Assembly (NCBI GenBank): GCA_964575755.1
Contig: CAZNRH010000001.1
Span: 17,100-81,099, forward strand
Length of the DNA: 64,000 bases
From: an uncultured Candidatus Saccharibacteria bacterium
GTDB lineage: Bacteria > Patescibacteriota > Minisyncoccia > Phycocordibacterales > JABMNX01
Reading direction: 5' to 3'
Below, one piece after another: positions 21,559 to 56,150 of the stretch. Position 1 is the first letter of the stretch; each line of letters opens with the position of its first letter. The notes below the pieces were generated by a model, which ran no database searches, was not told the DNA's origin, and was given only the letters and a program-made list of their open reading frames with translations. Made by a program: the position numbers and the translations under genes.

Positions 21559-21599
21559 CTAGCTATAAGTAAACCACTCACTATTTAAGTCTGTAGAAC

Positions 21600-22853
21600 C
21601 TATTTAAGTCTGTAGAACAAATATATAGATACAAATAAATTAGTAAATCGTGTAAGTAGGATACTTGCTATTGCTCCCCATATTCCATAAAGAGGTAATA
21701 AGACCAGAAGTAATCCTATTCTAGTTATTGGGATGATAGTGTTTAGAATGTATAGTTCTCGCTTTTTTGCATGCGCAATAAGGGTTTGTCCAAACAAAGA
21801 TGCTGGAAAGGAAAGAATAATTATTGCAAAAACTTGAGAATACAGCACAGAGTCAATGTATCTTGGAAATATAAATTTATATAAATACGGAGCAATAATA
21901 ATATAAAAAATAAAAAGCAAAACAGAGAAGAAGAATACTATTAGTGCTTTTCTCGGAATTGATGACTTCAACTCTTTGATATCTCTAGTACTAAACTTAG
22001 GTAAAGCAAGACTTTGAAGTATTCCATTAAATACCCCAAATTCCCTTGGTGGGGCCAAAGCAAAGGAGTATATTGCCAAAAGAGCAGGTCCTAAATAGTG
22101 AAACATAAGAAGGTTATCAATATTGTTTCCAATATTGCCAATAAACTTCATTACGCTTAAGTGTTTTGCATACGGTATAGTATGTAAGTCCTCGTTGGTA
22201 TTAGAGACAGGGCGGGTTTTTTTTACGAGAATATGTAAGGATATGCCTATAACAGCACTCGAAAGGAAAAAGATAAGAACAATTATGACTGGATTATTCG
22301 TTAAAAATACCGTGACGATAAGTGCTATTGTAGAAATTACACCACTAATCACTCCATATATAGCACTTGTTTTAAAATCTTTTCTTCCGCGCAGATATGA
22401 ATCAAAAAGAAAAAAGCTTTTTTGTAATGGTAAAAGTACAGCTATAATTAAAAGAATGATAGCTAGTGTATTATTTTCATTTATAAAATAATAAATAGAC
22501 CCAGCTAAACCTATGAAAAACAATAGGATATTCCACTTAAGTAAAGTCTTGAAGCCTGAAAGAAATGAACCTTCGTATCCTTGTGATACAGCACGCACTA
22601 CAACAGACCCCATTCCTGTTAGTGAAAATGCTCCGATGATACCCGCTATTGAGATGGCGAACTTATACGCACCATACGTTTCTTTAGATAAAAGTTTTGC
22701 AAACACCACAGTTAGTGTGATGGCTAAAAGAGAGTTTATTATCTGAGTTGCAGAAAGTACAGAACCGCTCTTGGCAAGGTAGAGCATGTCTGTTTTAGTA
22801 TATTTCTCGCTCCAACGCATGAGTCGGTATAGTTTATTTTTAGCTGTTTTCAT
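21600..22853 (-). CDS. Polysaccharide flippase (Wzx-like, MOP superfamily)
   Basis: 417 aa, about 12 TM helices, charged N-terminus. Confidence 0.6.
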   Translation of the reverse strand: MKTAKNKLYRLMRWSEKYTKTDMLYLAKSGSVLSATQIINSLLAITLTVVFAKLLSKETYGAYKFAISIAGIIGAFSLTGMGSVVVRAVSQGYEGSFLSGFKTLLKWNILLFFIGLAGSIYYFINENNTLAIILLIIAVLLPLQKSFFLFDSYLRGRKDFKTSAIYGVISGVISTIALIVTVFLTNNPVIIVLIFFLSSAVIGISLHILVKKTRPVSNTNEDLHTIPYAKHLSVMKFIGNIGNNIDNLLMFHYLGPALLAIYSFALAPPREFGVFNGILQSLALPKFSTRDIKELKSSIPRKALIVFFFSVLLFIFYIIIAPYLYKFIFPRYIDSVLYSQVFAIIILSFPASLFGQTLIAHAKKRELYILNTIIPITRIGLLLVLLPLYGIWGAIASILLTRFTNLFVSIYLFYRLK

Positions 22854-27371: not shown

Positions 27372-27560
27372 ATGGCAGCAAAAAAACGAAAAGTTGCAAA
27401 ACGAAAAGTTGCAAAGCGAAAGCCAGCAAAACGTAAAGCAGCAAAGAGGAAGCCTGCAAAGCGTAAAGCAGCTAAACGAAAGCCTGCAAAGCGTAAGGCA
27501 GCAAAAAGGAAGCCTGCAAAGCGTAAGGCAGCAAAAAGGACCACCCGACGACGACGATAG
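27372..27560 (+). CDS. Lysine/alanine-rich histone H1-like (Hc1/AlgP-tail-like) DNA-binding protein
   Basis: 62 aa of KRK(P/V)AK(R)KAA decapeptide repeats. Built from ~30-nt tandem DNA repeats. The two antisense ORFs are low complexity and are rejected. Confidence 0.55.
   Translation: MAAKKRKVAKRKVAKRKPAKRKAAKRKPAKRKAAKRKPAKRKAAKRKPAKRKAAKRTTRRRR
27399..27545 (+). repeat. Tandem ~30-nt repeats (aaacg[a/t]aagc[c/a]gcaaagcg...) encoding the KRKPAKRKAA units
   Basis: Visible periodicity: gcaaaacgtaaagcagcaaagaggaagcct / gcaaagcgtaaagcagctaaacgaaagcct / gcaaagcgtaaggcagcaaaaaggaagcct. Confidence 0.6.
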
Positions 27561-35957: not shown

Positions 35958-37232
35958 GTGGAGTATAATATGTATATGAAAAGTTTAACTATAGAAGGAA
36001 AGAAATTTATCTCGTCAAAACAAGCTGCCGAGATTATGGGGTACACCCAAGACTACATCGGCCAGCTTGCGCGTAGTGGTAAAATCTCGGCACAACGCGT
36101 AGGAGGAGTTTGGTATATAGACGAGTCAGAACTTTCTGGACAATCTTCTAATATCTCTAAAGAAAACATAAAAAAAGGAAAATTTATAGATAATTTATTT
36201 TACAAAAATAAAAACGATATAGTTAGTGAGATAGACGTTAAAAATCTATTGGATGCCAATAAAAGTAAAAAAGAAAACATAACCTTCGAAGGTGTGGATT
36301 ATATCTCGTCAAAACAAGCTGCCGAGATTATGGGGTACACCCAAGACTACATCGGCCAGCTTGCGCGTAGTGGTAAAATCTCGGCTAGGCAAATAGGAAG
36401 GGGTTGGTATATACCACGATCAGTAGTGGATAAGAAAACCACTGAAAACAAAAATAATCCAATAACTTCATTCCAAGTAAATGAACAGGAAGAAATAGTG
36501 GAGACTCTTACTATTAACAAAGAAGTTAATAACGCTAACATAAGTACAAAATCAAAAGAGCAACAGAGTATAGTAGCTATCAGTAAGCCAAAAACCCCTC
36601 AAAAAGAGGTGTTTAATGACATGGTTACATTTCATGACAATAAAGATAGTAGAGGCGTAGAAAAAGAGTTACATGGATCTACTAAGATACATATAAACAA
36701 GAGAGAACAGCCCTTAATAAGCAAGAGGAACAAAGACGACTATTACTACCCATCTTTTTTAAGTGCTTCATATTCTTTAGATGATACACCGTTGGTTCCT
36801 ACACCAATGCGTTCACGAGAACCTGTACTTCATAAAATAGTAACAGGAGAGAGGAATGAAGTAGAAAAACATATAAAAGAAAGACAGCTGAACAGAGAAG
36901 ATAATAGTTTGTATTCAAAAAAAGTAATAAAAGATACCCTAAAACCCAAAAGACAGTCGTTGATGCAAAAATCACCAATGTCACTCATAAAAATCGCTTC
37001 ACTGGCGACTACTGTGGTTGTTGTTGCCTCAATCGTTACATTTATACCCCATACATCTGTATTTAGCTCTAGTACAAGCACTCTAAAGACGGTTTTCTTA
37101 TTTAAGACACCAGATAGTGGTAGTACTTTAAAGGCTGAAGTTACTCAATCTATACCAGATTCATTAATGGAGAGAATGATAGGTGTATTCAGTAGCTTTA
37201 CTGAAGAGAAAATAGAATATAATTCTAAATAA
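35958..37232 (+). CDS. Protein with two tandem excisionase-type HTH (HTH_17-like) domains, a low-complexity linker and a C-terminal TM anchor
   Basis: FISSKQAAEIMGYTQDYIGQLARSGKISA(Q/R)(R/Q)(V/I)G(G/R)(V/G)WYI occurs twice. A hydrophobic segment MSLIKIASLATTVVVVASIVTFIP lies near the C-terminus. Confidence 0.45.
   Translation: MEYNMYMKSLTIEGKKFISSKQAAEIMGYTQDYIGQLARSGKISAQRVGGVWYIDESELSGQSSNISKENIKKGKFIDNLFYKNKNDIVSEIDVKNLLDANKSKKENITFEGVDYISSKQAAEIMGYTQDYIGQLARSGKISARQIGRGWYIPRSVVDKKTTENKNNPITSFQVNEQEEIVETLTINKEVNNANISTKSKEQQSIVAISKPKTPQKEVFNDMVTFHDNKDSRGVEKELHGSTKIHINKREQPLISKRNKDDYYYPSFLSASYSLDDTPLVPTPMRSREPVLHKIVTGERNEVEKHIKERQLNREDNSLYSKKVIKDTLKPKRQSLMQKSPMSLIKIASLATTVVVVASIVTFIPHTSVFSSSTSTLKTVFLFKTPDSGSTLKAEVTQSIPDSLMERMIGVFSSFTEEKIEYNSK
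36008..36091 (+). repeat. 84-nt direct repeat, copy 1 (identical copy at 36302-36385), inside the 35958 gene
   Basis: tatctcgtcaaaacaagctgccgagattatggggtacacccaagactacatcggccagcttgcgcgtagtggtaaaatctcggc appears twice, 294 nt apart and in frame. Confidence 0.8.
36302..36385 (+). repeat. 84-nt direct repeat, copy 2
   Basis: Identical to 36008-36091. Confidence 0.8.
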
Positions 37233-37518
37233 TATATAATTATCGTATTTAAACGCCATCTCGTTAAAACGAGGTGGTGTTTTGTATCAGTATAAGAAGA
37301 TTATCCAATACTACTAACTTTATACATGTTAGTACGACCTAGTTTGTAGTTCGTCAGTCCAGACTATCTTTACTTTAAAACATTTTTTATTATTTTAATT
37401 TTCTTGTTCTCTTAATATTTATTAAAAGACAAATCTAAAAGACTTTTCCACAAACAAAAAGACATGTCCTTAAGAAAATGTTGTAGAATGTAGTTAAATC
37501 GTGTTAGCGACCATAGGT

Positions 37519-40500
37519 ATGAGTAAAGAAGTTTTTTTCAATAACAAAAAATATTTATCTTCTAAAGATGCCGGCAATCAGGCTGGTTATACTCACGACT
37601 ATATTTCTAGATTATGTCGAGAGAGGAGAATCCCAGGTGAGAAAGTGGGTGGATCTTGGTATGTAGAGGCTGAACCTTTCTTCATTTTTTTGGATGAACA
37701 AAAAAATAAAAAAAGTGAAAGTAATAAGAACTTATCAAAAGAGTGTAAGCAGAATTATAAAAAGACAACTGAAGAATATGAGGAACAAGTAATGTCACGT
37801 TTAGAATTACCAGAATTCCCAAAATATCTTTTACAAGAAGTAACAGCTGTAGTAATTTCTATTGTTTTAGTTTTTGGTGTGTACTTCGCAAAAGATTCTT
37901 TGTATGTTCGAGATGTAATTGATTCATCACAATCAAACATTTCTAGAATTTATGAAGACACAAATGATTCCGTAAATACATTCAGAGAATTATTTACATA
38001 TAAAAATATTGCAAATAGCACATTGAAAGTTGTTACATCAGGAAGCAATATTATCGAACAAGGGTTAGTTCGTTATTATTCTTTTATTAATACTTCTGGA
38101 GAAGTAGTTGTGGCAACTTCACACAAAGTAAAAGAAATAAAAAGACAAGTTACTGTTGAGAATATTAAAACTACCACCACAAATAAGGTTACTAAAATCG
38201 TTGCCCTTGTTTCTGAAAGGGTAAAAAAATTAAACCAAGATATAAAAAACGTAGCGCATAAAATCAAATATACATTTACAAAAGAAAATACATTGACTTT
38301 AGTATCTTCTACTAAAAATTACATAGTGTCATCTGCGAGCTCTGCGGTATTTAACACACAGTTAGCTATGACAAGCGCCCAAGGAGCACTTATAAGTGCC
38401 CCAGAGTTTATCGGACGATTTATCGAGGGTATCAGGGTGCGTTTAGTTAGTTGGCTTAACGTCAATGATGTTAAAACACCTTTTGCCACTGTTACTGAAA
38501 AAGACGATACCGCAGTATTAATAACCCAACCAACTATAAAAAGAGTAATAGAGACACAGCATGTAGTAGTACAGTCAGGTATAACGGAGTCGTTTGTATT
38601 AACTAAGCTAGAACAGTTAAACAACAAGCTAAAGTCAGAAATCTATAAACTCTCTTCAATAAACGCAGGTAATATCGTCAACAACTACAATGTAATCTCT
38701 CAAACTAACAAGATAGATAAACTTAAAGGGGTTGCAATCACAGGGTCTACGTTTACTGACGGTACTATTAGTGGAAGTACATCATTTTCTGGTACAACAG
38801 GCTCTTTCAGTGGAGCGGTATCAGTAGCATCACTTACCGTAACAGGAGATACAACCTTGAGTGGAAGCCTTTCATTAGGTGGACTTACTGTAGATACCGC
38901 AGGGCTTGTATATCTCTCCTCCTCATCAAATGTTGGAATTGGTACATCGACACCATACGCAAAACTTTCGGTTGTGGGTCCAGTAGTAGGAGAGTATTTT
39001 CACGCCACATCAACCACCGCCACCTCAACCTTTGCAGGAGCTCTCCTAGTAACTCGTGCACCAACAGTAGCCCACACATTTTCGTCATGGGTTACGGGCG
39101 CTTCAAACTCAGCACTCTTTGACGCTTCTCTTGTCATTAATCCAACTACAGCTACAGCAGACTCTAACTTAATTTCTGCAGCAGTGGGTGGCTCCGTACG
39201 TTTCTTAGTAGACGCAGAAGGTGACGTATTCGTGAAAAATCTTACTTCAGTTGGTTCTGTAACATTGTCCACCACATCTGCATCCTCTTTTACTGTTGAG
39301 GGTAATACAACATTGGGGGATGCAATCACAGACACCACAACAATCAATGGAACACTCACGGTTACTGGTGCGACAAGTGTATCAACAGTTGATGGAAACT
39401 TCGGAGTCGGAACTACGTCCCCGTGGGCACGCCTTTCAGTATCTGGTGTTGCAGGTGCAAGTACACCTCTGTTTTCAATCTCTACCACAACAGCAGGCAA
39501 CGCAACAAGTACTGCCATCTTTGTTGATGAAAACGGAAAATTTGGTATCGGTACTACATCACCATTCGCACAGCTCTCGGTGGCGGGCAACGGACTCTTT
39601 AGTGGTACACTCACGACTACCAATCTAATAGCAAGCAGTATTTCTACATTGAACTCACTTTCTTTAACTGGTCTCGCTACATTTACAAATGGATTTATTT
39701 CACAAGCTTCCTCAACCATCTCAAGTGGTGGACTCACAACAGTTGGTTACTCCACAACAACCAAAGCACTTGTTGTACAAGGTGCCTCGGCAACTTCAAC
39801 ATTCGCAGGCGGTCTTGCAGTAGAAACCTCAGGATTTGTGTACGATTACAGTACGAATAGAGTTGGAATTGGTACCACTTCACCACTAGCCAAGCTCGAT
39901 ATATACGGCGACATAATTTTGTCAGGGACAGACAGACACTTAAACTTTGGTGATACATCAGGAACAAATGGTTACGGTTTCCGTGACAACTCAGGCACAA
40001 TGCAATTCAAAGACTCAGCAGGAGCATGGGCTGCTTTTGGTTCAGGAGGAGGTTCAGACATTTTTTCTCTAACAGACGCAACAACAGTAGAAGCAACCAC
40101 AACAAATGCAGGCATCAGTCTTAAATTAGATTACTTCACTGCCACTTCAACAACCGCAACTTCAACCTTTGCCGGCGGTCTTGCAATTGAAACATCAGGA
40201 TTAGTCTATGATTATTCTACTGGAAATGTTGGTATAGGTACTGCGAGTCCAACACAAGCTCTTGATGTTGGAAGCGGTAACATAACCACTACAGGCACAC
40301 TAGCGGCTGGTGCGACGACACTTAATGGTCAGACAATAGTTGGTGGGACAGGTTCTGTATCTGTAGGTAGTTTGGTTGGTGAATTACAGGTTCAAAAAAC
40401 TGGGACAAATGTAGCCGCATTTTCTGCTTATGAAAACTTTACTAGTGGCGCAGGTCTTGTTCTCGGCCATTCTCGTGGGACATCTATAGGTGCATTTAAT

Positions 40501-41451
40501 ACCGTTATTACAGGAGATGGAGTTGGACATATTGATTTTGCAGCAGCTGACGGAACAGACTTAAATAATCTAGCTGCAAGTATCCTTGTATCTGTTGAGG
40601 GTACAATAGCAGGGAACAGGACTCCAGGTAAGATTGAGTTCCAAACAGGAGCTGATGCTGCTGGCTCCGCACTTACCACCGCCCTCACCCTAGACTCCAG
40701 TCAGAACTCTACGTTTGCTGGTACCATAGGTTCTGACATAATAACTATTACATCAGCAAGTGACCAAAAACTTATACTTGCTGGTTCAGCTTCTCCTAGG
40801 TTAACTCTGACACCAACTAGCGGGGATGAATTTAGCATTCAAAACAACACAGGAGTCTTAAAATTCACAAATAATACAGATAGCGACAGGGTTGATTTAA
40901 CGATAGATGGAGATGGCAATGTTGGCATTGGAACTTCAACCCCATGGGGCAAGCTTTCAGTTGAGATGGACACAGTAAACCCTTCATTTGTAGTATCAAA
41001 TCAAGGCTCATCAACTCCAGCACTATACATAAGTGGAGTAAACCAAGATGGAGTTATTGGTATTGGTACAAAAGGAGGCTCAGGCAGGCGACTTGATGTA
41101 TTTGACGCTGGGAATCCTCAGCTTCGTCTATCGCAGACGAGCAGTATCTTCACGAACTTCCAAGTCGCCGCATCAACAGGAGACCTCACGATTGACCTTA
41201 ATCCAAACACAAGCGCGACAGATATATACATGACGCAAACAGGCGGTACTACTGGCGCAAACCTGCGTGTATGTGAAGGAACAGCATGTCCAAGTGTAGT
41301 AATCAATAACGGTGGTAATGTGCTTGTAGAAAACGCAGTCTATTTTGGCAACGGCTTCCGCATAGACCAAGTAGTAGGCACAACCACAGAGATAGCGGTC
41401 TACGGTGTAACATCAACCACAACCCCAATCATCATTTTTGATGAGTTCTAG
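37519..41451 (+). CDS. Giant membrane-anchored protein: N-terminal excisionase-type HTH, single TM, ~1180-aa extracytoplasmic Thr/Ser/Gly-rich region with tail-fibre-like (V/I)GIGT(T/S)SP.AKL.V repeats
   Basis: KKYLSSKDAGNQAGYTHDYISRLCRERRIPGEKVGGSWYV (HTH_17-like), TM LLQEVTAVVISIVLVFGVYFA, then at least seven copies of the GIGTTSP(W/F/L)A(K/R/Q)L(S/D)V motif and duplicated FAGGLA(V/I)ETSG(F/L)VYDYST blocks. Start may be the TTG/GTG at 37501. Confidence 0.5.
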   Translation: MSKEVFFNNKKYLSSKDAGNQAGYTHDYISRLCRERRIPGEKVGGSWYVEAEPFFIFLDEQKNKKSESNKNLSKECKQNYKKTTEEYEEQVMSRLELPEFPKYLLQEVTAVVISIVLVFGVYFAKDSLYVRDVIDSSQSNISRIYEDTNDSVNTFRELFTYKNIANSTLKVVTSGSNIIEQGLVRYYSFINTSGEVVVATSHKVKEIKRQVTVENIKTTTTNKVTKIVALVSERVKKLNQDIKNVAHKIKYTFTKENTLTLVSSTKNYIVSSASSAVFNTQLAMTSAQGALISAPEFIGRFIEGIRVRLVSWLNVNDVKTPFATVTEKDDTAVLITQPTIKRVIETQHVVVQSGITESFVLTKLEQLNNKLKSEIYKLSSINAGNIVNNYNVISQTNKIDKLKGVAITGSTFTDGTISGSTSFSGTTGSFSGAVSVASLTVTGDTTLSGSLSLGGLTVDTAGLVYLSSSSNVGIGTSTPYAKLSVVGPVVGEYFHATSTTATSTFAGALLVTRAPTVAHTFSSWVTGASNSALFDASLVINPTTATADSNLISAAVGGSVRFLVDAEGDVFVKNLTSVGSVTLSTTSASSFTVEGNTTLGDAITDTTTINGTLTVTGATSVSTVDGNFGVGTTSPWARLSVSGVAGASTPLFSISTTTAGNATSTAIFVDENGKFGIGTTSPFAQLSVAGNGLFSGTLTTTNLIASSISTLNSLSLTGLATFTNGFISQASSTISSGGLTTVGYSTTTKALVVQGASATSTFAGGLAVETSGFVYDYSTNRVGIGTTSPLAKLDIYGDIILSGTDRHLNFGDTSGTNGYGFRDNSGTMQFKDSAGAWAAFGSGGGSDIFSLTDATTVEATTTNAGISLKLDYFTATSTTATSTFAGGLAIETSGLVYDYSTGNVGIGTASPTQALDVGSGNITTTGTLAAGATTLNGQTIVGGTGSVSVGSLVGELQVQKTGTNVAAFSAYENFTSGAGLVLGHSRGTSIGAFNTVITGDGVGHIDFAAADGTDLNNLAASILVSVEGTIAGNRTPGKIEFQTGADAAGSALTTALTLDSSQNSTFAGTIGSDIITITSASDQKLILAGSASPRLTLTPTSGDEFSIQNNTGVLKFTNNTDSDRVDLTIDGDGNVGIGTSTPWGKLSVEMDTVNPSFVVSNQGSSTPALYISGVNQDGVIGIGTKGGSGRRLDVFDAGNPQLRLSQTSSIFTNFQVAASTGDLTIDLNPNTSATDIYMTQTGGTTGANLRVCEGTACPSVVINNGGNVLVENAVYFGNGFRIDQVVGTTTEIAVYGVTSTTTPIIIFDEF

Positions 41452-41535: not shown

Positions 41536-42333
41536 ATGTTATCGCAATACATAAACGAATTACGACTTTTTATACAAAATTTCACCAGGTGGATACTCTC
41601 ACTGCTTGTATTAACCATTTTCTTTTTTAGCTTTGGATTAAAAGAAGTTGTGTTGATGGGTAAAACTTTAGTACTCCCTCTTCCGGTCAGTGCATCATTT
41701 GCAACACAACTTTTTAATTACATGACGACGGACCTAATACCCGAAGGAGTTACACTTATTGTCACCAATCCTCTTACAGCATTTATTGCACAAATTAAAA
41801 TTGCACTACTTTTGGCATTTATTTTCACATTACCGTTTCTTTTATATAGACTCATTCAATATTTCTCTCCAGCACTGTACATGAAAGAAAAAGTTTCAGT
41901 ACTTAAGGTCGCACTTCCGTCTGCACTATTGTTTACACTTGGAGTAGCATTTTCATATTTAGTTCTCATTCCGCCAACATTCACTCTCTTGTATGCCTAC
42001 ACAGATAACATTAGCGCTGTACCATTTTTTACTGTGAATGAATTTATTGGTATTGTATTAGCGCTTGTTTTCGCGACTGGGATAATGTTTTTACTACCAG
42101 TATCTATGGTATTACTGAGTCGTCTTGGTTTAGTGCCACCTAATTTTTGGCGGGCGCAATGGCGTTATGCACTACTATTCTTCCTCATTGTTTCTGCTAT
42201 AATTACACCAGATGGAAGTGGTGTTACTATGACGCTACTTTCTATTCCGATGGCAGGACTTTATGGAGTTGGCTTAGTGATAAGTCAAAAGAGTACTGTA
42301 AACAGTCGGAAAACAAAAATTAATTATTTATAA
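41536..42333 (+). CDS. tatC: Twin-arginine translocase subunit TatC
   Basis: Six TM segments. EL-R-like N-terminus (INELRLFI). C-terminal SAIITPDGSGVTMTLLSIPMAGLYGVGLVIS matches the TatC motif (aiiTPpD......la.Pm..LYE). An alternative TTG start at 41482 adds 18 aa. Confidence 0.75.
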   Translation: MLSQYINELRLFIQNFTRWILSLLVLTIFFFSFGLKEVVLMGKTLVLPLPVSASFATQLFNYMTTDLIPEGVTLIVTNPLTAFIAQIKIALLLAFIFTLPFLLYRLIQYFSPALYMKEKVSVLKVALPSALLFTLGVAFSYLVLIPPTFTLLYAYTDNISAVPFFTVNEFIGIVLALVFATGIMFLLPVSMVLLSRLGLVPPNFWRAQWRYALLFFLIVSAIITPDGSGVTMTLLSIPMAGLYGVGLVISQKSTVNSRKTKINYL

Positions 42334-42386
42334 ATCATTAACCAGGTTGCAGGTTTTAGCAAATCAGGTTTTGGGTCTAAGTTACC

Positions 42387-42415
42387 CTAATTCCTAATTC
42401 CTAATTCCTAATTCC
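42387..42415 (+). repeat. Four tandem copies of the heptamer CTAATTC immediately upstream of tatA
   Basis: ctaattcctaattcctaattcctaattcc ends 9 nt before the tatA ATG. Related TAATTCCTAATTC motifs precede the ORFs at 42962 and 43465. Confidence 0.7.
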
Positions 42416-42424
42416 TTTTAAATT

Positions 42425-42655
42425 ATGTTCGGACTAGGAATACCAGAGATTATAATAATATTACTAGCGATAGGGATTCTATTGTTTGGTAGTAAGAAGA
42501 TCATAGAACTTGCTCGTTCAATGGGGCGTTTTACTGGGGAGTTTAAAAAAGGCAAGAGTGATATAGAAGCAGAAATGAAAAAGTCAGAAACTGACGCTAT
42601 ACAAGAAGCACCAGTAGATACAGCTGCAAGTAACGAAGGCGACAATAATAAATAA
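42425..42655 (+). CDS. tatA: Twin-arginine translocase subunit TatA/E
   Basis: MFGLGIPEIIIILLAIGILLFGSKKIIELARSMGRFTGEFKKGK matches the TatA consensus (TM helix, FG.KK hinge, amphipathic helix). Confidence 0.8.
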   Translation: MFGLGIPEIIIILLAIGILLFGSKKIIELARSMGRFTGEFKKGKSDIEAEMKKSETDAIQEAPVDTAASNEGDNNK

Positions 42656-42664
42656 TCATAGTAG

Positions 42665-42928
42665 ATGAAAGAGACTCAAACAAAAAACAAAGAAGTAGTT
42701 TTTAACAGGCACAGAAGGACATTTCTTACTGTTGCTGGTACGGGTGTCATAGCTTTTATTTTAGGGAAGATATTTGGGCCAAGCATTAACCTTTTCTCGA
42801 AAGATCATGCTATTAGCGAGAAAGAGTTTCGTAATTTTCGTATCGTCGAGACAAATAAAGAGATGAAGTTCTACGACCGTGGAGGAAACGAAATATTTAT
42901 TGTAGATAAAGAAAGTTTTGCACAATAA
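42665..42928 (+). CDS. Small protein with a twin-arginine-like signal/anchor (NRHRRTFLTVAGTGVIAFILG); possible Tat substrate
   Basis: RRTFL fits the S/T-R-R-x-F-L Tat motif. An h-region follows. The mature part is about 55 aa. Located 9 nt after tatA. Confidence 0.4.
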   Translation: MKETQTKNKEVVFNRHRRTFLTVAGTGVIAFILGKIFGPSINLFSKDHAISEKEFRNFRIVETNKEMKFYDRGGNEIFIVDKESFAQ

Positions 42929-42961
42929 ATAGATTTAATCACTAATTCCTAATTCACTATC

Positions 42962-43366
42962 ATGACAATGCGCATCTCAGCAACCCGAATAGATATGGAT
43001 GATAAAATCCTTCAAAAACCAGTTTTGAAGGATTATGGAGAGACTCTTACGAGTGCTAATAGTAGTACTACGTACACAATAGACCTAACCCTTGGCAACA
43101 CGTTTAAAATCACAATGACGGGTAATTGTACATTTACGTTTTCAAATCCACCTGTTACAGGAACAACAGGAAGCTTTACTCTTATTTTAATTCAAGACGG
43201 TACAGGTACACGTACGGCAACATGGCCTGCGTCAGTTGATTGGGCTGGAGGCACAGCTCCAACTCTTACTACAACTGCAACTACAGGTACGGACATCATA
43301 ACTTTTATAACAACTGACGGCGGAACAATTTGGTGGGGTTTTGCAGCTGGTATTAATATGAGCTAA
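42962..43366 (+). CDS. Hypothetical small Thr/Gly-rich beta-type protein
   Basis: 134 aa with no motif recognised. Preceded by a TAATTCCTAATTC motif. Same strand, tight spacing with neighbours. Confidence 0.35.
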   Translation: MTMRISATRIDMDDKILQKPVLKDYGETLTSANSSTTYTIDLTLGNTFKITMTGNCTFTFSNPPVTGTTGSFTLILIQDGTGTRTATWPASVDWAGGTAPTLTTTATTGTDIITFITTDGGTIWWGFAAGINMS

Positions 43367-43464
43367 AGGTGAGTTATAAATGTCTTAATTACACTTAATT
43401 CTTGATTATTAATCTACACTTACTCTATGTTTAATTCTTTATTCATAATTCCTAATTCTTTTCT

Positions 43465-46400
43465 ATGCCATTAGGAGCAGAATTCAGAGGACTACTTGGA
43501 ACTGCTGGAACCTCCAGTAGCTCTTTCGTGATTCCACAATCAATCCGCTTTAACGACAACGACTTAGCATATATGTCCAGGACACCTTCAGTGGCCGGTA
43601 ACCGCAAGACATGGACTTGGAGTGGTTGGGTTAAACGTGGGAGTTTAGGAGGTTCCCAAGTAATATTTGGTGCTGGTGCGAACAGTTCTGATAGAGCTTT
43701 ATTTTATTTCAGTGGGGACAATCCTACATTTATTATAAGTGCTGCGTCAGTTAATATAGGGTTTATAAAGACTACACAAGTATTACGAGATCCTTCAGCG
43801 TGGTATCATCTTGTTCTTGTTGTTGATACAACTCAAGCTACAGCGGCTAATAGATTAAAGATGTATATAAACGGGGAGCAAGTAACATCGCTTTCTACTG
43901 CAACATATCCAGCTCAGAATACAGATACTTATATCAATTACACAGAAATTCATAGGATAGGTAGTGATTCCGCAACCATCTCAAGTCTTATGGATGGCTA
44001 CCTCGCAGACGTACACTTCATTGATGGTTCTGCACTAGCCGCTTCCGACTTTGGTGAAACAGACGCTAACGGTAGTTGGGTTCCTATTGAGTTTGACAGT
44101 AGTGCTATCGCCGCAGAAACAGTCACCTCTAGTTACTGTACCAGTGCCGTTGATGCTACAGATAGCGCCTCTTACACATTCTCTAGCCAGTCTATTGGCA
44201 CAGCGACATCAGACAGAATAGTCGTAGTCACCACCGCGCAAGGTAACGTCGGTATGACTGTGGGTTCTCTGACCGTTGGAGGCATCAGTGCGACTGAGGC
44301 TATTGAAATAACTGAAAGCACTGGGTACGCCACTTCTGGGCAATGGTATGTACCAGTTCCAACAGGAACAACTGCTGACATAGTTGTTAATATTTCAGGT
44401 GGTACTGCATCAAGATGTGGTATCACAGTTCACGCAATATATGGCTCTAGTGGAAAGCCCTACGCAACAGCTTACGCTGAACAGGACTACCCTCTTATTC
44501 AATCCATCCAAGTTCCCGATAATGGGGTGATCATCGGCGCGTCAATGGTTAATTCCGGTGCGCCAACTGTCACTTGGACTAACCTCACTGAACGAGTTGA
44601 CGAAGTAATTGAGAGCGCCTCATCCTCACAATCTGTGGCTTCGGATGCATTTGCTACGGGCGGGTCAATAACTGTTACCTGCTCCCCTGCGTCAGATAAC
44701 CGTGAAGTGCTAACCCTAACTTCATGGGGCGCGGTAGGAGGCTACGGCACCAACGGCTTTTATATTGATGGGGCTGACAGTGCTAATCTTGGTTTAGATG
44801 TGAATGCAGTAACTAGCACGGCTTTAACAGTTACATTCACAGATAGCTCGGTAGATACATCAAACAGTACAGCCTACACATTTTCTTCTCAGGCAATCGG
44901 CGCAGCAGGAAGTGATCGTACTATTGTCGTTGCTACAAATGGTGAGGGTGGAGGCGCAAGTCGCTATGTCAGCACACTGACCATTGGCGGCGTAAGTGCA
45001 ACAAAAATAGTTTCTAGCTTATCAGAAAACCTCTATTGGCCTTGTGAGATGTGGAAAGCTGTCGTCCCAACAGGCACTACGGCGGATATTATCGTTACTT
45101 GGGATAGTAACATGTCTGAGTGTGGCTTAGGGGTGTGGGATGTTCGTAATATGGGGGGGGTGTTTTCTTCTGGTACAGATAGTACAGACCCCGGAAATAC
45201 CACCCTGTGGATACCTGCTGGTGGCGTTGGGATTGGTTCTATGAAAAGCGGTGGCGGGGTTGCATCGTACACTTGGACAGGATTAACCAAAGACTATGAT
45301 GAACTTGTTGACAGTGCGAACAATGGGTATCATTCAGGAGCCAGTATAACAAACGCAACGGCACAGTCTCTTGCTATTGAGGCCAACCCTTCCGGTGGTT
45401 CACAGTTTGCATTTTGTGCCGTGTCCTTTGTGATGGCAAATGATAATTCATTTGCCCCTTCCGGCCTGACAACTGCCGATCAAATGCTCGACAGCCCGAC
45501 CGATGATGCGGCGAATGGGATTGGCAATTACTGCACTTGGAACGTACTTAATAACTCGGGTCCAGGATACACATGGTCAAATGGCAATCTAAAGTCAACT
45601 TCGGATGCTCAAGGTCAGGACGGCGCATCTGGAACACTCCATGCTTCTTCTGGTAAATATTATTTTGAGTACACTGTCGACGCTATCGTAACTGGTGGAA
45701 CTGTATATGGAGTATGTACTGATGGTTGTGCGGCCTCTAGTGATATGGTTGACGGCACGGTCGCGGGTGGTATGGATCTTTATGGCGGTGGCGAAGTTTA
45801 TGGATACAGAGGAACCGGAGGAAAAGTTGATATTTCCTCCGACACAGCTTACGGGACTTCGTTCGTCGCTACTGATGTAATTGGCGTAGCTCTAGATTTA
45901 GATAATGGAATTATTTGGTTCAGTAAGAACGGCGCTTGGCAAGAATCTGCGACGCAGGGCGAGATCGAAGCAGGGACTACGACCAACGCAGCATTTACAT
46001 GGACCCCAGCTGGTCAGTTCTGGACTATTTGGATGCACGATTTTGGTGCAAATTCATCTGGCACTTTTAATGGGGGTCAATCAGGTTTTACGTATACCCC
46101 TCCAACAGGTTTCAAAGCTCTTTGTACCGCCAACCTCCCAGCCCCTACTATTACAGACCCTAGCGCCTACAATCAGACAGAACTCTTTACAGGTAATTCA
46201 GCCACAAATGTTATTACGTTTAGTGGTAACTCCACAATGCAACCAGACTTAGTATGGATTAAGCGACGGGATTGGTTAGGAAGTAACCATGTTATTACTG
46301 ATAGTGTTCGTGGTGTTACCAAGGAGATTAACTCGGACCTTACTAATGCAGAGTCCACGGAAGCTACTGGCTTAACTTCTTTTGATACAAATGGATTTAC

Positions 46401-47175
46401 TATTGGATCACATGGTGATTATAATACTAGTGGGAAGCTACAAGTAGCGTGGTGTTGGAAGGCAGGTGGCGCTGGCGTTTCAAACACTGACGGCTCCGTT
46501 ACATCAACTGTCAGTGCCGATACAACAAGTGGTTTCTCGATTGCCAAGTATACTGGGCTAGATGCTGCCATAACGGTCGGGCATGGACTATCAAGTGCTC
46601 CAGAATTCATAATAGTCCGTAATCTTTCGGCTGTTGCCAGTTGGGCTGTGTATCATAAAGATATGACAGGCGCAACCTACTACTTGACGCTTGACACAAC
46701 CGTAGCACAAGCTGGACCTGATGCTAGTATTTTTTCAGCCGCACCAACTGCTACTATCCTTAATATTGGGAACAGTATCAGAACAAGTCGCGCATCAGAG
46801 AACTTTATTGCTTATTCTTGGCACTCAGTTTCTGGCTTCTCCGCTTTTGGCACATACACAGGCAACGGTTTAGCAGATGGGCCTTTTGTTCATTGTGGTT
46901 TTAGGCCAGCGTTTATTATGATTAAAAACATAACTTCTGCTGGAAGTTGGAATTTGATAGATGTTAAAAGAGATAACTATAACGTTGTGTCAAGACGTTT
47001 ATTAGCACAAGCCCCTGATGTGGAAGTTACCGGGGGAACTTATATGGATATCACCTCAAATGGTTTCAAACGGCGTTCAACAAACTTCAACACGGACACA
47101 GAAATATATCTTTACGCAGCATTCGCAGAACACCCGTTCGGTGGTGATGGTGTCTCTCAAGCACGAGCACGGTAG
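43465..47175 (+). CDS. Giant (1236 aa) protein with an N-terminal LamG/concanavalin-A-like lectin domain and a long Thr/Ser/Gly/Ala-rich beta-repeat region
   Basis: FYFSGDNPTFIISAASVNIGF...WYHLVLVVDTTQATAANRLKMYINGEQV matches the LamG-like jelly-roll signature (W.HLv.v.d......lYvnG). No classical signal peptide. Preceded by a cataattcctaattc motif. GC visibly higher than the surrounding genes. Confidence 0.5.
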   Translation: MPLGAEFRGLLGTAGTSSSSFVIPQSIRFNDNDLAYMSRTPSVAGNRKTWTWSGWVKRGSLGGSQVIFGAGANSSDRALFYFSGDNPTFIISAASVNIGFIKTTQVLRDPSAWYHLVLVVDTTQATAANRLKMYINGEQVTSLSTATYPAQNTDTYINYTEIHRIGSDSATISSLMDGYLADVHFIDGSALAASDFGETDANGSWVPIEFDSSAIAAETVTSSYCTSAVDATDSASYTFSSQSIGTATSDRIVVVTTAQGNVGMTVGSLTVGGISATEAIEITESTGYATSGQWYVPVPTGTTADIVVNISGGTASRCGITVHAIYGSSGKPYATAYAEQDYPLIQSIQVPDNGVIIGASMVNSGAPTVTWTNLTERVDEVIESASSSQSVASDAFATGGSITVTCSPASDNREVLTLTSWGAVGGYGTNGFYIDGADSANLGLDVNAVTSTALTVTFTDSSVDTSNSTAYTFSSQAIGAAGSDRTIVVATNGEGGGASRYVSTLTIGGVSATKIVSSLSENLYWPCEMWKAVVPTGTTADIIVTWDSNMSECGLGVWDVRNMGGVFSSGTDSTDPGNTTLWIPAGGVGIGSMKSGGGVASYTWTGLTKDYDELVDSANNGYHSGASITNATAQSLAIEANPSGGSQFAFCAVSFVMANDNSFAPSGLTTADQMLDSPTDDAANGIGNYCTWNVLNNSGPGYTWSNGNLKSTSDAQGQDGASGTLHASSGKYYFEYTVDAIVTGGTVYGVCTDGCAASSDMVDGTVAGGMDLYGGGEVYGYRGTGGKVDISSDTAYGTSFVATDVIGVALDLDNGIIWFSKNGAWQESATQGEIEAGTTTNAAFTWTPAGQFWTIWMHDFGANSSGTFNGGQSGFTYTPPTGFKALCTANLPAPTITDPSAYNQTELFTGNSATNVITFSGNSTMQPDLVWIKRRDWLGSNHVITDSVRGVTKEINSDLTNAESTEATGLTSFDTNGFTIGSHGDYNTSGKLQVAWCWKAGGAGVSNTDGSVTSTVSADTTSGFSIAKYTGLDAAITVGHGLSSAPEFIIVRNLSAVASWAVYHKDMTGATYYLTLDTTVAQAGPDASIFSAAPTATILNIGNSIRTSRASENFIAYSWHSVSGFSAFGTYTGNGLADGPFVHCGFRPAFIMIKNITSAGSWNLIDVKRDNYNVVSRRLLAQAPDVEVTGGTYMDITSNGFKRRSTNFNTDTEIYLYAAFAEHPFGGDGVSQARAR

Positions 47176-47311
47176 ACTTCGATTTGGCGCATCTTTGTTG
47201 CGCCAGGCAACATACATTTCTCGTTCAAATATGCGACGTCCAACATCGCATATTTGAACAGAGCGTAACACCTACTCAAGAATAATATTTTGAATATCTC
47301 CAATATAGAAA

Positions 47312-47352
47312 CATCATATCACTTGGAGGTTCGACCTCCAAGTGATATGATG
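47312..47352 (+). repeat. 41-nt palindrome catcatatcacttggaggt-tcg-acctccaagtgatatgatg
   Basis: 19-bp perfect arms. Its outer catcata...tatgatg arms are shared with the 33574 palindrome. Confidence 0.65.
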
Positions 47353-47357
47353 TTTCT

Positions 47358-48029
47358 ATGCGTAAAACACCTTTTATAAACGGAGAGTTTTATCATCTTT
47401 ACAATCGTGGTGTAGACAAAAGAAATACTTTTGAGGACCAAGAAGATGTTAATAGATTTTTTCAAAGTATGGAAGAATTTAATGTAGTCGAGCCAGTGGG
47501 GAGTATTTATGAAAATTCATTCAGAAAAAAGAACAAACTTGGAGGTCGAACCTCCAAGTTAGATAAGTTAGTAGAATTTGTTTGTTATTGTATTAATCCT
47601 AATCATTATCATTTTATAGTGTCGCAAACTAGAGACAACGGCATTAGTGAATTTATGAAAAGACTGTCAGGGGGATATACATATTATTTTAATAATAAAA
47701 ACAAAAGATCAGGATCCCTTTTTCAAGGTACATTTAAATCTGTTCACATAGACTCAAATGAGTACCTACTACATTTAAGTGCTTATGTAAATTTAAATAA
47801 CAAAGTACATAAACTTAATAGTTCATCCTATAAGTTAGTGAGATCAAGTTGGAATGAATATATAGAGAGGAATAAAAAAAGACAAGCTGATTTTTGCGAG
47901 AAAAGTATTGTTTTAGGTCAATTTAAAAACCCCTCAGAATATAAAGTTTTTGCAGAAAATTCTTTGAATGATATTTTATACCACAAGTCTCAGAAGGAAA
48001 TAGGGTCTCTAATTATAGAAAAATTATAA
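47358..48029 (+). CDS. IS200-like / REP-associated tyrosine transposase (RAYT-like, HUH Y1)
   Basis: GEFYHLYNRGVDKRNTF, HuH INPNHYHFIV, catalytic-Tyr region YLLHLSAYVNLN. Paralog of 33639-34304 and of the 5' fragment at 2-376. Confidence 0.6.
   Translation: MRKTPFINGEFYHLYNRGVDKRNTFEDQEDVNRFFQSMEEFNVVEPVGSIYENSFRKKNKLGGRTSKLDKLVEFVCYCINPNHYHFIVSQTRDNGISEFMKRLSGGYTYYFNNKNKRSGSLFQGTFKSVHIDSNEYLLHLSAYVNLNNKVHKLNSSSYKLVRSSWNEYIERNKKRQADFCEKSIVLGQFKNPSEYKVFAENSLNDILYHKSQKEIGSLIIEKL
47536..47560 (+). repeat. REP palindrome aacttggaggt-cga-acctccaagtt inside the transposase ORF (encodes KLGGRTSKL)
   Basis: Same family as the flanking palindromes. Lies in-frame within the CDS at a position where the paralog 33639 has unrelated sequence. 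Confidence 0.6.
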
Positions 48030-55206: not shown

Positions 55207-56070
55207 ATGAAATCACTACGAGAGTATGTAGCAGAAGCTGAGGTAAATAAGGTTGCAATTGGGCACTTTAATATTTCTGATACTGAGCAATTACATGCGA
55301 TTTTTAATACAGCTAAAAAGCTTAATCTGCCCATTATAATAGGTACATCAGAAGGAGAGCGTGATTTCGTAGGGGTTAAACAAGCGGTAGCTCTTGTAAA
55401 AAGTCTTCGTGAGGAACACAACTACCCTATTTTCTTAAATGCAGACCACACTTATTCACTAGAGAGAGTGAAAGAAGTCGTAGACGCAGGGTATGATGCT
55501 GTTATTTTCGACGGCACCAAGCTCCCCTTTGAAGAAAATATTGCAGAAACTAAGAAAGCGGTCGAGTATGCACGGAGTGTCGATGCAAACATTATTGTAG
55601 AGGGAGAGATAGGGTACATTGGCACATCTTCAAAAGTACTTGATGAATTACCTAAGGGTGTTGATCCAGAAGGCGCTGTAACAACTGAAGAGGAGGTATC
55701 AAGGTATGTTAAAGAAACAGGAGTTGATTTAGCTGCACCTGCAGTAGGCAATCTGCATGGCATGCTTAAGGGAGGCAAAAATCCAATGTTAAACATAGAA
55801 CAAATCGTTAAGTTAAGAAAAGCTGGTGGCGTACCAATAGTACTTCATGGAGGTTCCGGTATTTCTGACGAAGACTTTAGGTCTGCAATAGAGGCTGGAG
55901 TTTCGACCATACATATCAATACAGAAATCCGCATTGCATACCGAGAAGGAATAGAAGAAGCACTTAAAGAAAACCCTGATGAAATAGCACCATACAGGTT
56001 TATGAAAAAAGGGGCTGAGAATGTCGCTAAGGTAGTTGAGAAACGACTACGTCTATTCAATAATATTTAA
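55207..56070 (+). CDS. fba: Class II fructose-1,6-bisphosphate aldolase
   Basis: KVAIGHFNISD, LHGGSGISDEDF and STIHINTE are class II aldolase motifs. Confidence 0.85.
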   Translation: MKSLREYVAEAEVNKVAIGHFNISDTEQLHAIFNTAKKLNLPIIIGTSEGERDFVGVKQAVALVKSLREEHNYPIFLNADHTYSLERVKEVVDAGYDAVIFDGTKLPFEENIAETKKAVEYARSVDANIIVEGEIGYIGTSSKVLDELPKGVDPEGAVTTEEEVSRYVKETGVDLAAPAVGNLHGMLKGGKNPMLNIEQIVKLRKAGGVPIVLHGGSGISDEDFRSAIEAGVSTIHINTEIRIAYREGIEEALKENPDEIAPYRFMKKGAENVAKVVEKRLRLFNNI

Positions 56071-56150
56071 ATCAGGTTAATAATCTTTAAACCAAGTTAA
56101 TAATCTATAAATAAGTTACGAATTGGGTAAGACTACATCTCATATAAAAC

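Follow-up and report, generated by a model that had tools for sequence, protein, structure and literature searches.

Start-adjacent heptanucleotide repeats in a conserved tat and fibre-like gene cluster of a Patescibacteria-type bacterium: candidate SD-independent initiation leaders

The window analyzed in this study, a stretch of 64 kb, belongs to a tiny-genome bacterium of the CPR/Patescibacteria type that hardly uses normal ribosome-binding sites. Five ORFs on the plus strand make up the locus, at the places where the initial annotation had called them: tatC (41536-42333; ORF 41482/41536-42333), tatA (42425-42655), ORF87, encoding a small protein of 87 aa with an RR motif, RRTFL (42665-42928), ORF134, encoding 134 aa (42962-43366), and a giant gene encoding 1236 aa (43465-47175). 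TatC and TatA are identified by Pfam (TatC, 9.6e-42; TatA_B_E, 6.2e-12), and TatA also by the NCBIfam model tatAE (1.9e-13); the matches of TatC to two NCBIfam TatC models (3e-42 and 1.9e-37) stay under the equivalog cut-offs of both. The product of the preceding gene (37501-41451, plus strand), 1316 aa in length, begins with an excisionase/HTH_17-like N-terminus and also has a single TM segment and an extended region of fibre-like repeats. This N-terminus was called by eye, with weak Pfam hits in relatives only; a Pfam scan of the protein itself gave no match. In relatives, this gene always precedes tatC, and the C-terminal ...IIFDEF of its product is conserved.

The genes had been proposed to form one export and surface module tied together by a shared upstream repeat. 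The cluster is indeed conserved, as all related loci have the order tatC-tatA-ORF87 and most have an ORF134 homologue no more than two genes further on, but the repeat is not private to export or surface genes. The HTH genes are syntenic across the relatives as well, and the neighbouring content differs, including sulfotransferases, toxin-antitoxin genes, and PF05635. Over this region, the sequence is 100% identical in two further assemblies of the organism (Logan SRR6439370 and GCA_006243245.1), repeat copy number included.

ORF87 starts 9 nt past the tatA stop. The RRTFL motif and hydrophobic region ascribed to its product are confirmed: residues 17-21 are RRTFL, followed by TVAGTGVIAFILG, and R17, R18, and L21 are invariant in 15 of the 15 family members, each encoded directly 3' of tatA. 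The single hydrophobic helix is followed by an invariant LGKxFGPS and a small three-stranded beta domain; the AF2 model (helix 4-36, three strands at 59-81) is of low confidence (pLDDT 61.7). Among the 58 window proteins, this is the sole credible RR-signal protein. In Bacillus subtilis, tatAd-tatCd adjoin phoD, so that a minimal TatAC system has its substrate gene beside it. The locus is similar in encoding a two-component TatA/TatC beside a twin-arginine-motif protein, but differs in its order (tatC-tatA-substrate) and in the RR protein, which is only 87 aa long, without a recognisable enzyme domain or an obvious AxA cleavage site. Given these features and the LGKxFGPS motif after the hydrophobic region, the ORF87 product may stay anchored in the membrane as a partner instead of being secreted as a substrate.

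ORF134 and the giant had been described as a beta-rich and a LamG-like protein, the latter without a signal peptide. Pfam supports the LamG assignment of the giant (Laminin_G_3, SPRY, and DUF7483, the last at 2.1e-110), and neither sequence has a signal peptide; what had gone unrecognised is the homology of both to phage proteins. ORF134 matches PHROG 9017 "tail fiber protein" (1.6e-19) and nine more tail/structural PHROGs, has a precomputed PF26209 Phage_phiTE_241_C hit, and by tblastn finds tail-fibre genes of Roseobacter, Microcystis, and actinophages, the similarity being to the C-terminal domains of tail fibres. The giant matches PHROG 19943 "virion structural protein" (3.2e-173) and 72 phage records, chiefly from pelagiphages and cyanophages. 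It shares the order LamG-SPRY-DUF7483 with the tail-fibre or virion structural proteins of pelagiphages, cyanopodophages, and roseophages (PHROG 19943, 24898, 9017; DUF7483), with 33-40% identity across about 60-70% of its length. These similarities make ORF134 and the giant homologues of tail-fibre or virion proteins of phages, in the case of the giant of podophages. Unlike phage fibre genes, they occupy a conserved chromosomal position, with the tat genes on one side and glycolysis/pentose-phosphate genes on the other, and the neighbouring ORFs scanned showed no match to phage families save a weak tail-fibre PHROG match of the 1316-aa protein (1.5e-10). GC3 is 0.36 in the giant versus about 0.28 in the neighbouring genes. 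The setting of the two genes is one of chromosomal synteny and not of a prophage.

The starts of tatA, ORF134, and the giant are each preceded by an array of TAATTCC-type heptamers, and exact TAATTCCTAATTC occurs in the 64 kb at these three sites only (42388-42414, 42943-42955, and 43446-43458). Array 1 (42386-42416, plus strand) is (CCTAATT)x4.4, that is, (TAATTCC)x4, and is G-free (TRF score 62, 100% matches). The spacer before it (42344-42385, plus strand) consists of degenerate G/U-rich 7-8-nt units, AGGTTGC AGGTTTT AGCAAATC AGGTTTT GGG, which can pair only weakly with the array; the fold of 42330-42430 (-17.3 kcal/mol, z = -1.34) is not significant. Array 2 (42936-42955, plus strand) reads TAATCAC TAATTCC TAATTC (CTAATTC x2.0). 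Array 3 (43387-43458, plus strand) is composed of degenerate TAATT-type units, TTAATTAC..TTAATTCT.., running back to about 43387, with two G within about 80 nt; its core at 43432-43458 is TAATTCT TTATTCA TAATTCC TAATTC (plus strand; TRF x3.9, 80% matches).

The single heptamer is unremarkable in the window (20 observed, 12.95 expected). The 13-mer with up to two mismatches has 11 hits versus 4.57 expected, and all eight hits on the plus strand are confined to this 1.1-kb stretch. When the 58 window genes are ranked by the G-free run leading to the ATG, tatA, ORF134, and the giant hold the top three places (43, 35, and 29 nt), and the tatA leader is the only place in the window with a lag-7 autocorrelation above 0.70. 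The placement beside these three starts is non-random, as had been supposed; the distance to the ATG, given before as 10-25 nt, is 9, 6, and 6 nt.

Similar leaders are found at the same genes in relatives. In about 11 orthologous loci, G-poor repeats with a period of 7-8 nt end 2-15 nt before the ATG, and the unit, though not its position, varies by genome (CCTAATT, TAACTTT, CCTAACA/CCTATAA, ACCTAAT). TRF detected, in 13 loci, about 20 arrays of period 7, 8, or 14 ending 2-15 nt ahead of plus-strand starts, all of them G-poor on the coding strand; C-poor arrays adjoin starts only before PF05635 genes. The three array-bearing gene classes are the same in genomes of 30-53% GC and 45-100% ORF87 identity. 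In nine scored loci (eight orthologous ones and the window), the median G-free run to the ATG is 27.5 nt for tatA, ORF134, and LamG-type genes versus 5.5 nt for other genes, and the 7/8-nt periodicity is 0.55 versus 0.34 (Mann-Whitney p of 3e-8 and 1e-8; 2e-5 and 1.5e-5 without the window), p-values that overstate independence because the loci are phylogenetically related.

The initial annotation had offered two readings of the repeats, a common operator or an unusual translation-initiation signal. In the former, the heptamers would bind a lineage-specific regulator, for instance the upstream HTH_17/excisionase-type proteins, which would co-regulate tatA and the fibre-like genes. The syntenic HTH genes would suit this, as would the use of one unit at three sites in the window and nowhere else in it, the reuse of one unit in other genomes (TAACTTT in L340, at tatA, ORF134, and the LamG gene), and the CCTAATT core that the window shares with L048, L049, and L338 ahead of ORF134, where the remaining spacer diverges. 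However, relatives that keep the HTH proteins have differing units, and two close relatives (L048 and L343) have no array before tatA, which argues against a fixed operator for these proteins. The spacing from motif to ATG also varies (7, 10, and 13 nt), the near-absolute strand bias is not expected of a DNA site, and the identical array precedes unrelated Patescibacteria genes and occurs in many phyla and phages without these HTH proteins. Successive sites phased at 7 bp lie on different helix faces, which is unusual for HTH dimers. We regard a common operator as distinctly unlikely.

The initiation signal is the better fit of the two readings. An SD-like core at -20 to -4 was found for only two of 53 window genes, the arrays occupy the usual RBS position, and their coding strand is nearly always G-poor. 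We tentatively suggest, with somewhat less than even confidence, that the heptamer leaders, G-free and made by slippage, work at the mRNA level as a translation-initiation region independent of SD pairing. TAATTCC tandem repeats would arise by slippage and, if transcribed as we infer, would form the final 20-70 nt of the 5' leaders of tatA, ORF134, and the fibre-like giant. Without G, a leader is unable to fold on itself, and so it could offer the 30S subunit an open landing site before the start codon, with ribosomal protein S1 as one possible reader. The TAA occurring once per 21 nt in every frame would halt ribosomes entering from upstream, so that chosen cistrons in a long co-directional cluster could each have strong translation of their own. 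TatA is normally required in large excess over TatC; this, together with a structural role of the fibre-like proteins, could explain why strong independent translation would serve here. ORF87 has no repeat leader in the window, and its start 9 nt past the tatA stop would fit translational coupling rather than independent loading. Drift of the unit and slippage in copy number would leave relatives with the feature and not the sequence.

Against this reading, the majority of genes in the window start translation with no array of this kind before them. Composition alone leaves unexplained that the three arrays of one genome share one unit, and that four related genomes keep the CCTAATT core before ORF134.

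The closest parallel is the TAACTGA direct repeats of Beggiatoaceae, of which the TAATTCC arrays appear to be a variant. The TAACTGA repeats occur in 2-6 copies, mostly forward, a few nucleotides from start codons and without an RBS (PMC4679880); a translational role was proposed for them, with function likewise unproven there (MacGregor 2015, PMC4679880). They are found in marine Beggiatoaceae and also in some Cyanobacteria and Bacteroidetes, with 169 sets per Beggiatoa genome (PMC4679880). The arrays described here are likewise tandem 7-nt repeats, intergenic, forward, and close to start codons that lack a canonical RBS. In both cases the unit holds stop codons, so every frame is closed, and the downstream genes are unrelated, ribosomal-protein genes included (compare the uL14-like gene in L113). 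The differences are the unit (TAATTCC here, CCTAATT and TAACTTT in relatives), the Patescibacteria-type host, the density of three sites per 64 kb, the absence of G, and the positional conservation at orthologous genes with turnover of the unit. A single TAACTGA is present in the L048 leader.

Heptamer repeats just upstream of start codons form a widespread, poorly understood class, of which the window holds a local example. (TAATTCC)3 arrays were found in more than 120 genome stretches of many phyla and in 42 viral stretches, which partly bears out the concern that the motif might be common upstream of unrelated genes. In other Patescibacteria, of eight arrays with at least three units, seven lie no more than 12 nt from an ATG-started ORF. 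Four of these are forward, 4-12 nt from the ATG, and the ORF next to each of the other three is on the opposite strand. One such opposite-strand ORF (L063) looks spurious, and by eye this array precedes, in forward orientation, a GTG/TTG-started ScpA-like ORF; its reassignment would bring the forward arrays to five. Judged by their N-termini, the genes that follow these arrays are unrelated ones, resembling those for uL14, RuvC, an NAD-dependent sugar dehydratase/epimerase, and GatA. Across all phyla, (TAATTCC)n occurs near starts in both orientations, most commonly with the GGAATTA strand right after a stop codon, and therefore there is no universal forward rule.

The abundance of such arrays could also mean that they are functionless: slippage products of high mutability, perhaps the remaining arms of PF05635 ("23S rRNA IVS protein") cassettes, tolerated only in short non-coding gaps ahead of genes. 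Multi-unit heptamer arrays are common in IMG/VR stretches ((TAACTGA)3 in 107, (CATTCAT)3 in 54, (TAATTCC)3 in 42, and (TCTACTA)3 in 7), and 178 of 179 (TAATTCC)≥3 arrays are intergenic, with no recurring protein family next to the 179. In L346, L046, L165, and L349, PF05635 genes occupy precisely the interval between two inverted heptamer arrays, of which the downstream, G-poor one abuts the next ATG. As cited in PMC4679880, Mrazek (2007) reported that among long SSRs the heptanucleotide class is the most abundant; the arrays resemble those long SSR/STRR-type repeats in heptanucleotide period, intergenic location, patchy phylogeny, and presumed slippage origin. Unlike the long arrays of these surveys, which have no fixed relation to start codons, they are short, strand-specific, and start-adjacent. 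Against a purely neutral origin, arrays recur at the same three gene classes across genomes with consistent strand and distance; they adjoin starts instead of lying mid-spacer (array 1 is 53 nt from the tatC stop and 9 nt from the tatA ATG); and the window has no PF05635 gene, such a gene flanking only two of about 140 genome arrays. A neutral relic is thus unlikely in our view.

The arrays might instead act through RNA structure, pairing with a purine-rich partner (an upstream inverted array or the first codons) in a stem that is cut by RNase III or masks the start, splitting or gating the polycistronic transcript. In the predicted fold of the leader of the giant with codons 2-9, the AUG sits in the apical loop of a hairpin (-24.2 kcal/mol, z = -2.46), and inverted array pairs precede starts in L046, L350, L341, and L104, the purine-rich/pyrimidine-rich pairs being clearer in the first three relatives than in the window. 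However, only the L104 fold is significant (z = -4.40, versus -1.25 in L350 and +1.02 in L046), the tatA and ORF134 leaders have no significant structure (z = 0.14, -0.49, and -1.34), and the giant-leader pairing is not conserved in L338 and L340, which have another leader unit but identical codons. We consider this mechanism improbable. The hairpin of the giant is also the opposite of the unstructured leader expected of an open landing site.

Finally, array copy number could switch or tune the expression of surface or host-contact genes. In Haemophilus influenzae, hmw1A and hmw2A carry an (ATCTTTC)n SSR in the 5'-UTR, with at least 11 copies in natural alleles, proven transcription, cleavage by RNase III, and variable copy number (PMC12721329). 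The arrays of the window likewise are G-free pyrimidine-rich heptamers in the leaders of large adhesin-like, phage-fibre-derived genes, with a possible purine-rich pairing partner, and they turn over between species. Unlike the hmw arrays, they are short (2-4.4 copies); no copy-number polymorphism was seen among the three assemblies of this organism, nor within the related pairs L049/L338 and L347/L348, whose leaders are identical; and tatA is a housekeeping-type gene. Such variation is very doubtful here. One observation in its favor is that the Logan contig L001 ends exactly within the tatA array, a break that could reflect population heterogeneity.

The window has a GC content of 37%, and its genes are nearly all co-directional. 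The tatC gene (41536-42333) matches Pfam PF00902 (9.6e-42; 143.6 bits, cut-off 25.1), and tatA (42425-42655) matches PF02416 (6.2e-12; 45 bits, cut-off 21). The TatC protein is divergent, since it falls below the NCBIfam equivalog cut-offs, and the locus showed no further TatA/B paralogue. The next genes are ORF87 (42665-42928, 87 aa), ORF134 (42962-43366, 134 aa), and the giant gene (43465-47175), encoding a 1236-aa protein with Laminin_G_3, SPRY, and DUF7483 domains; NCBIfam has no name for any of these three. The closest named relative of the locus is a 'Candidatus Pacebacteria' MAG, which places the chromosome with the Patescibacteria/CPR type. The order in relatives is gatB, an HTH_17 protein gene, a gene for a fibre-like protein of 925-1316 aa, tatC, tatA, ORF87, and a variable segment, followed by the Ig-like surface protein gene, gap, rpiB, rpe, and tkt; gatB, gap, rpiB, rpe, and a split transketolase gene are likewise present in the window. 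The variable segment is usually opened by the ORF134 homologue and further contains DUF7483/LamG genes, sulfotransferases, toxin-antitoxin genes, or PF05635 genes. The gene cluster proposed in the initial annotation is therefore a real unit with recurring synteny, which defines a conserved tatC-tatA-RR-protein-fibre-domain cluster in Patescibacteria. Upstream of tatC, two consecutive genes (35958-37232 and 37501-41451) both encode proteins with excisionase/HTH_17-type N-terminal regions. In the second product, this region leads into a transmembrane segment, beyond which fibre-like repeats extend for about 1200 aa; the topology resembles that of ToxR, and the protein, which is syntenic in relatives, has a conserved C-terminus ending in IIFDEF.

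The twin-arginine motif that had been noticed in the gene after tatA is borne out by its homologues. Residues 17-21 of ORF87 are RRTFL, followed by TVAGTGVIAFILG, that is, a twin-arginine consensus in a polar n-region with a moderately hydrophobic h-region after it, and R17, R18, L21, and an LGKxFGPS motif are invariant across 15 ORF87 homologues. All 15 members of the family were found only directly after tatA, and among the 58 proteins of the window ORF87 is the sole credible RR-signal protein. For these reasons, ORF87 is a good candidate for a Tat substrate or a Tat-inserted anchor, as predicted from its sequence. No AxA site was found in ORF87 by eye, and the invariance of LGKxFGPS after the h-region suggests that the protein may be an uncleaved anchor. 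A structure model of low confidence (pLDDT 61.7) contains a long helix and a small three-stranded sheet. A metagenome scan with the ORF87 alignment yielded only seven loci, two of them duplicates. The conserved cluster provides the minimal Tat system, otherwise unexplained, with a candidate for its substrate or partner.

Judged by sequence similarity, ORF134 and the giant protein are homologues of phage tail-fibre and virion structural proteins. ORF134 matches PHROG families annotated as 'tail fiber protein' (best, PHROG 9017, 1.6e-19), and the giant matches the 'virion structural protein' family PHROG 19943 (3.2e-173); PHROG 24898 (1.7e-87) was also matched in the tail-fibre homology test of these proteins. 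In phages, the giant has counterparts with 33-40% identity in 72 genomes, most of them of pelagiphages and cyanophages. The coordinates and domains assigned to the 'beta-rich protein' and the 'LamG giant' stand, and the two labels are to be amended by the phage affinity of both proteins. A prophage is ruled out by the gene context, which comprises the tat genes, an IS200-like Y1 transposase, the Ig-like surface protein, and gap/rpiB/rpe/tkt, and by the same synteny in relatives. These genes are phage tail-fibre homologues retained on the chromosome beside a minimal Tat system. The giant gene has a GC content of 0.46 and a GC3 of 0.36, compared to GC3 of about 0.27-0.29 in its neighbours, which is consistent with acquisition from a phage followed by partial amelioration.

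The repeats reported before tatA, ORF134, and the giant are present as described and form a real signal beside the start codons. Array 1 (42386-42416), composed of 4.4 copies of CCTAATT, ends 9 nt before the tatA ATG; array 2 (42936-42955), TAATCAC-TAATTCC-TAATTC with two copies, ends 6 nt before the ATG of ORF134; and array 3 (about 43387-43458), a degenerate series of about four copies, ends 6 nt before the ATG of the giant. All three are intergenic and close all three frames with TAA. Within the 64 kb, the 13-mer is confined to these three sets. Ranked by the length of the G-free run preceding the ATG, tatA, ORF134, and the giant take the first three places among 58 genes. There is no Shine-Dalgarno (SD) core in the three array leaders, and an SD-like core at -20 to -4 was found in 2 of 53 plus-strand genes of the window. 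Together with the TATAAT-like boxes lying at most 35 nt from the ATG in many window genes, this scarcity of SD cores suggests that leaders are very short and that initiation is SD-independent throughout the genome.

Several other explanations of the arrays were rejected. Pairing with the 16S anti-SD fails, as UAAUUCC cannot pair with CCUCC (the window contains no 16S gene). A sigma-70 consensus scan of the three spacers was empty, and TAATTC lacks the -7 T; an Rfam gathering scan of the whole window returned one tRNA only. General RNA structure was discarded as well, the tatA and ORF134 leaders having z-scores of 0.14, -0.49, and -1.34. A stem serving RNA processing or masking is very unlikely: of the three leaders, that of the giant alone folds (z = -2.46), by a pairing that is not conserved. 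Among other stretches, a heptamer array rich in purines (C-poor) is followed by a short loop and then by a complementary-type G-poor array abutting the ATG at L046:7601-7692, L350:2683-2753, L341:6188-6288, and L104:235-350; the last of these inverted-array leaders folds at -34.9 kcal/mol (z = -4.40).

In two further public assemblies of this organism, the sequence at the repeats is the same as in the window, so that copy numbers agree in all three, and the leaders are also identical within two pairs of related loci (L049/L338 and L347/L348). Copy-number polymorphism, the mark of a contingency locus, was thus not seen at the assembly level in either comparison, and phase variation of the kind found in hmw genes is very unlikely. 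A Logan contig of the same organism (L001, SRR6439370; L001:1-38 equals window 42387-42424) begins exactly inside the tatA array, which is not long enough for a 31-mer to recur; the contig may break there because copy number is heterogeneous in the sample, or simply because coverage is low.

In about 11 orthologous loci (GC 30-53%, ORF87 identity 45-79%), tandem repeats of 7-8 nt again precede tatA, the ORF134 homologue, and LamG/DUF7483 genes of the MPLGAE/MPFG type, reaching to 2-15 nt from the ATG; in L340, L346, and L349 they also precede tatC. The unit varies: it is CCTAATT in the window, TAACTTT/TTTTAAC in L340, L341, L343, L046, and L348, CCTAACA/CCTATAA before the LamG-type gene of L343, TAACACC after ORF87 in L346, and ACCTAAT before tatA in L046 and L350. 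When leaders were scored in nine loci (eight orthologous loci and the window), the G-free runs of tatA, ORF134, and LamG-type genes greatly exceeded in length those of the other genes in these loci, and their 7/8-nt periodicity was stronger; without the window, p = 2e-5 for the G-free run and 1.5e-5 for periodicity, values that overstate independence because the scored loci are related. On the coding strand, about 20 arrays next to starts are poor in G, and C-poor arrays adjoin starts only before PF05635 genes. Most loci, including the window, have no array before ORF87 (a weak G-free run of the ATTCTTT type occurs in L048, L049, and L338), and some relatives (L048, L343) lack the one before tatA. 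Four related genomes retain the CCTAATT core before ORF134, where the remaining spacer has diverged; with regard to an operator, L048 lacks this core before tatA, and elsewhere other units stand in its place. Across genomes, the three gene classes keep a G-free leader with 7-nt periodicity while the unit changes, and these natural replicates separate the feature from its sequence, making translational, operator, and relic models distinguishable. We regard a neutral or relic simple sequence repeat as rather unlikely.

The same array is by no means confined to this locus. Exact (TAATTCC)3 occurs in 42 viral stretches and in at least 120 genome stretches; those listed are mostly from Bacteroidota, and also from Opitutales, Acidobacteriota, Chloroflexota, Cyanobacteria, Clostridia, and eight Patescibacteria. 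Among the matches listed, 178 of 179 (TAATTCC)n arrays are intergenic, both orientations adjoin starts across all phyla, and the commonest arrangement places the GGAATTA strand directly after a stop codon. In Patescibacteria, an ATG-started ORF lies no more than 12 nt from seven of the eight arrays, four in forward orientation and three on the opposite strand; in one of the latter, L063, that ORF appears spurious, and inspection by eye places the array before a ScpA-like ORF starting with GTG/TTG, so that the forward count would rise to five. The adjacent genes are unrelated, their N-termini resembling uL14, an NAD-dependent sugar dehydratase/epimerase, GatA, and RuvC. No recurring protein family accompanies the arrays: when 159 flanking ORFs were clustered, no family exceeded four members, and a common flanking gene or mobile element was rejected. 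Control heptamers occur in 107 (TAACTGA), 54, and 7 viral stretches, compared to 42 for TAATTCC, which is thus one of several favoured units and not a unique signal. The interpretation in the initial annotation is partly supported: the repeats are probably not a private operator of an export module, one of the two readings offered there, and represent a local variant of a widespread heptamer-repeat class of putative function, found before unrelated genes.

A true operator or regulon would account for the reuse of one unit within a genome, but the turnover of units between relatives, the strand bias, and the wide distribution of the same array make it distinctly unlikely. More speculative still, and in our opinion highly improbable, is a lineage-specific regulon in which a co-evolving trans-acting factor couples TatAC to fibre-derived surface proteins, with ORF87 as the signal-bearing partner carrying the signal-less ORF134 and/or fibre-like proteins through Tat by 'hitchhiking'; if true, episymbiont-type bacteria would possess a phage-derived attachment apparatus exported by Tat.

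A close counterpart of the arrays is the TAACTGA type (PMC4679880), with its forward, intergenic sets of two to six tandem 7-nt units, located a few nucleotides from a start without a canonical RBS. The window arrays (4.4, two, and about four copies) agree in these respects, whereas the unit differs, being TAATTCC/CCTAATT in the window and TAACTTT, CCTAACA, or ACCTAAT in relatives; hence the window repeat is a variant and not a strict member. The TAACTGA type also forms many sets per genome before functionally unrelated genes; the 64 kb of the window contain three sets, and the TAATTCC array adjoins unrelated genes in other Patescibacteria.

The best-supported reading, which we favour tentatively and rate just short of probable, is that the arrays are an mRNA-level, SD-independent initiation region, since SD sites are unused and the arrays, which stand where an RBS would, are free of G and strand-specific and close the frames with TAA. 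By analogy, it matches the translational role proposed for TAACTGA repeats in Beggiatoaceae (PMC4679880). Slippage would create and remodel the array leaders, through which chosen cistrons could load ribosomes independently. Independent loading might suit tatA and the structural fibre-like proteins. TatA is normally needed in excess over TatC. The locus offers a compact test case for the choice and ranking of start codons in bacteria without SD pairing, and it bears on what the heptanucleotide repeats that abound in cyanobacteria, Bacteroidota, and Beggiatoaceae do.

PF05635 genes, described as '23S rRNA intervening-sequence protein' and encoding an Avd-like four-helix bundle, sit exactly between inverted heptamer arrays in several stretches (L346:1-474, L046:8297-8699, L165:1636-2062, L349:3954-4492, L074:769-1191). 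For instance, 8.6 copies of GAATTAG are followed by the gene, by TAATTCC-TAACTCC-TGATTC, and directly by the tatC ATG. Patescibacteria, Opitutales, and Bacteroidota all show this layout, which resembles an IVS-like cassette whose arms are repeats; solo arrays might be its remnants. A general link was rejected, as an HMM for PF05635-type proteins detected them next to no more than 2 of about 140 genome arrays and nowhere in the window. A 25-kb viral contig (L028/L044, IMGVR_UViG_3300038696_000410) carries at least eight TAATTCC/TAATCCC arrays in one orientation; several follow a conserved element containing ACTTACGTAAGYG and run into an ATG, looking like repeated promoter-plus-leader units.

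Other repeats were observed in the window. A perfect 20-bp hairpin (47310-47354; AACATCATATCACTTGGAGG..CCTCCAAGTGATATGATGTT) separates the stop codon of the giant from the IS200-like Y1 transposase gene (47358-48029) and could be a transposon-end/REP-type hairpin or a terminator; in L338, a Y1_Tnp gene also adjoins tatC. Between ORFs ending at 27103 and starting at 27752, a 15/30/60-nt tandem repeat of the GCAAAGCGAAAGCCA type (27395-27540, at least eight copies) may encode a small lysine/alanine-rich repeat protein. Finally, a perfect 19-nt direct repeat in two copies lies between convergent genes (21581-21618), and a 20-nt repeat in three copies occupies an intergenic spacer (56059-56118), both unrelated to the heptamers.
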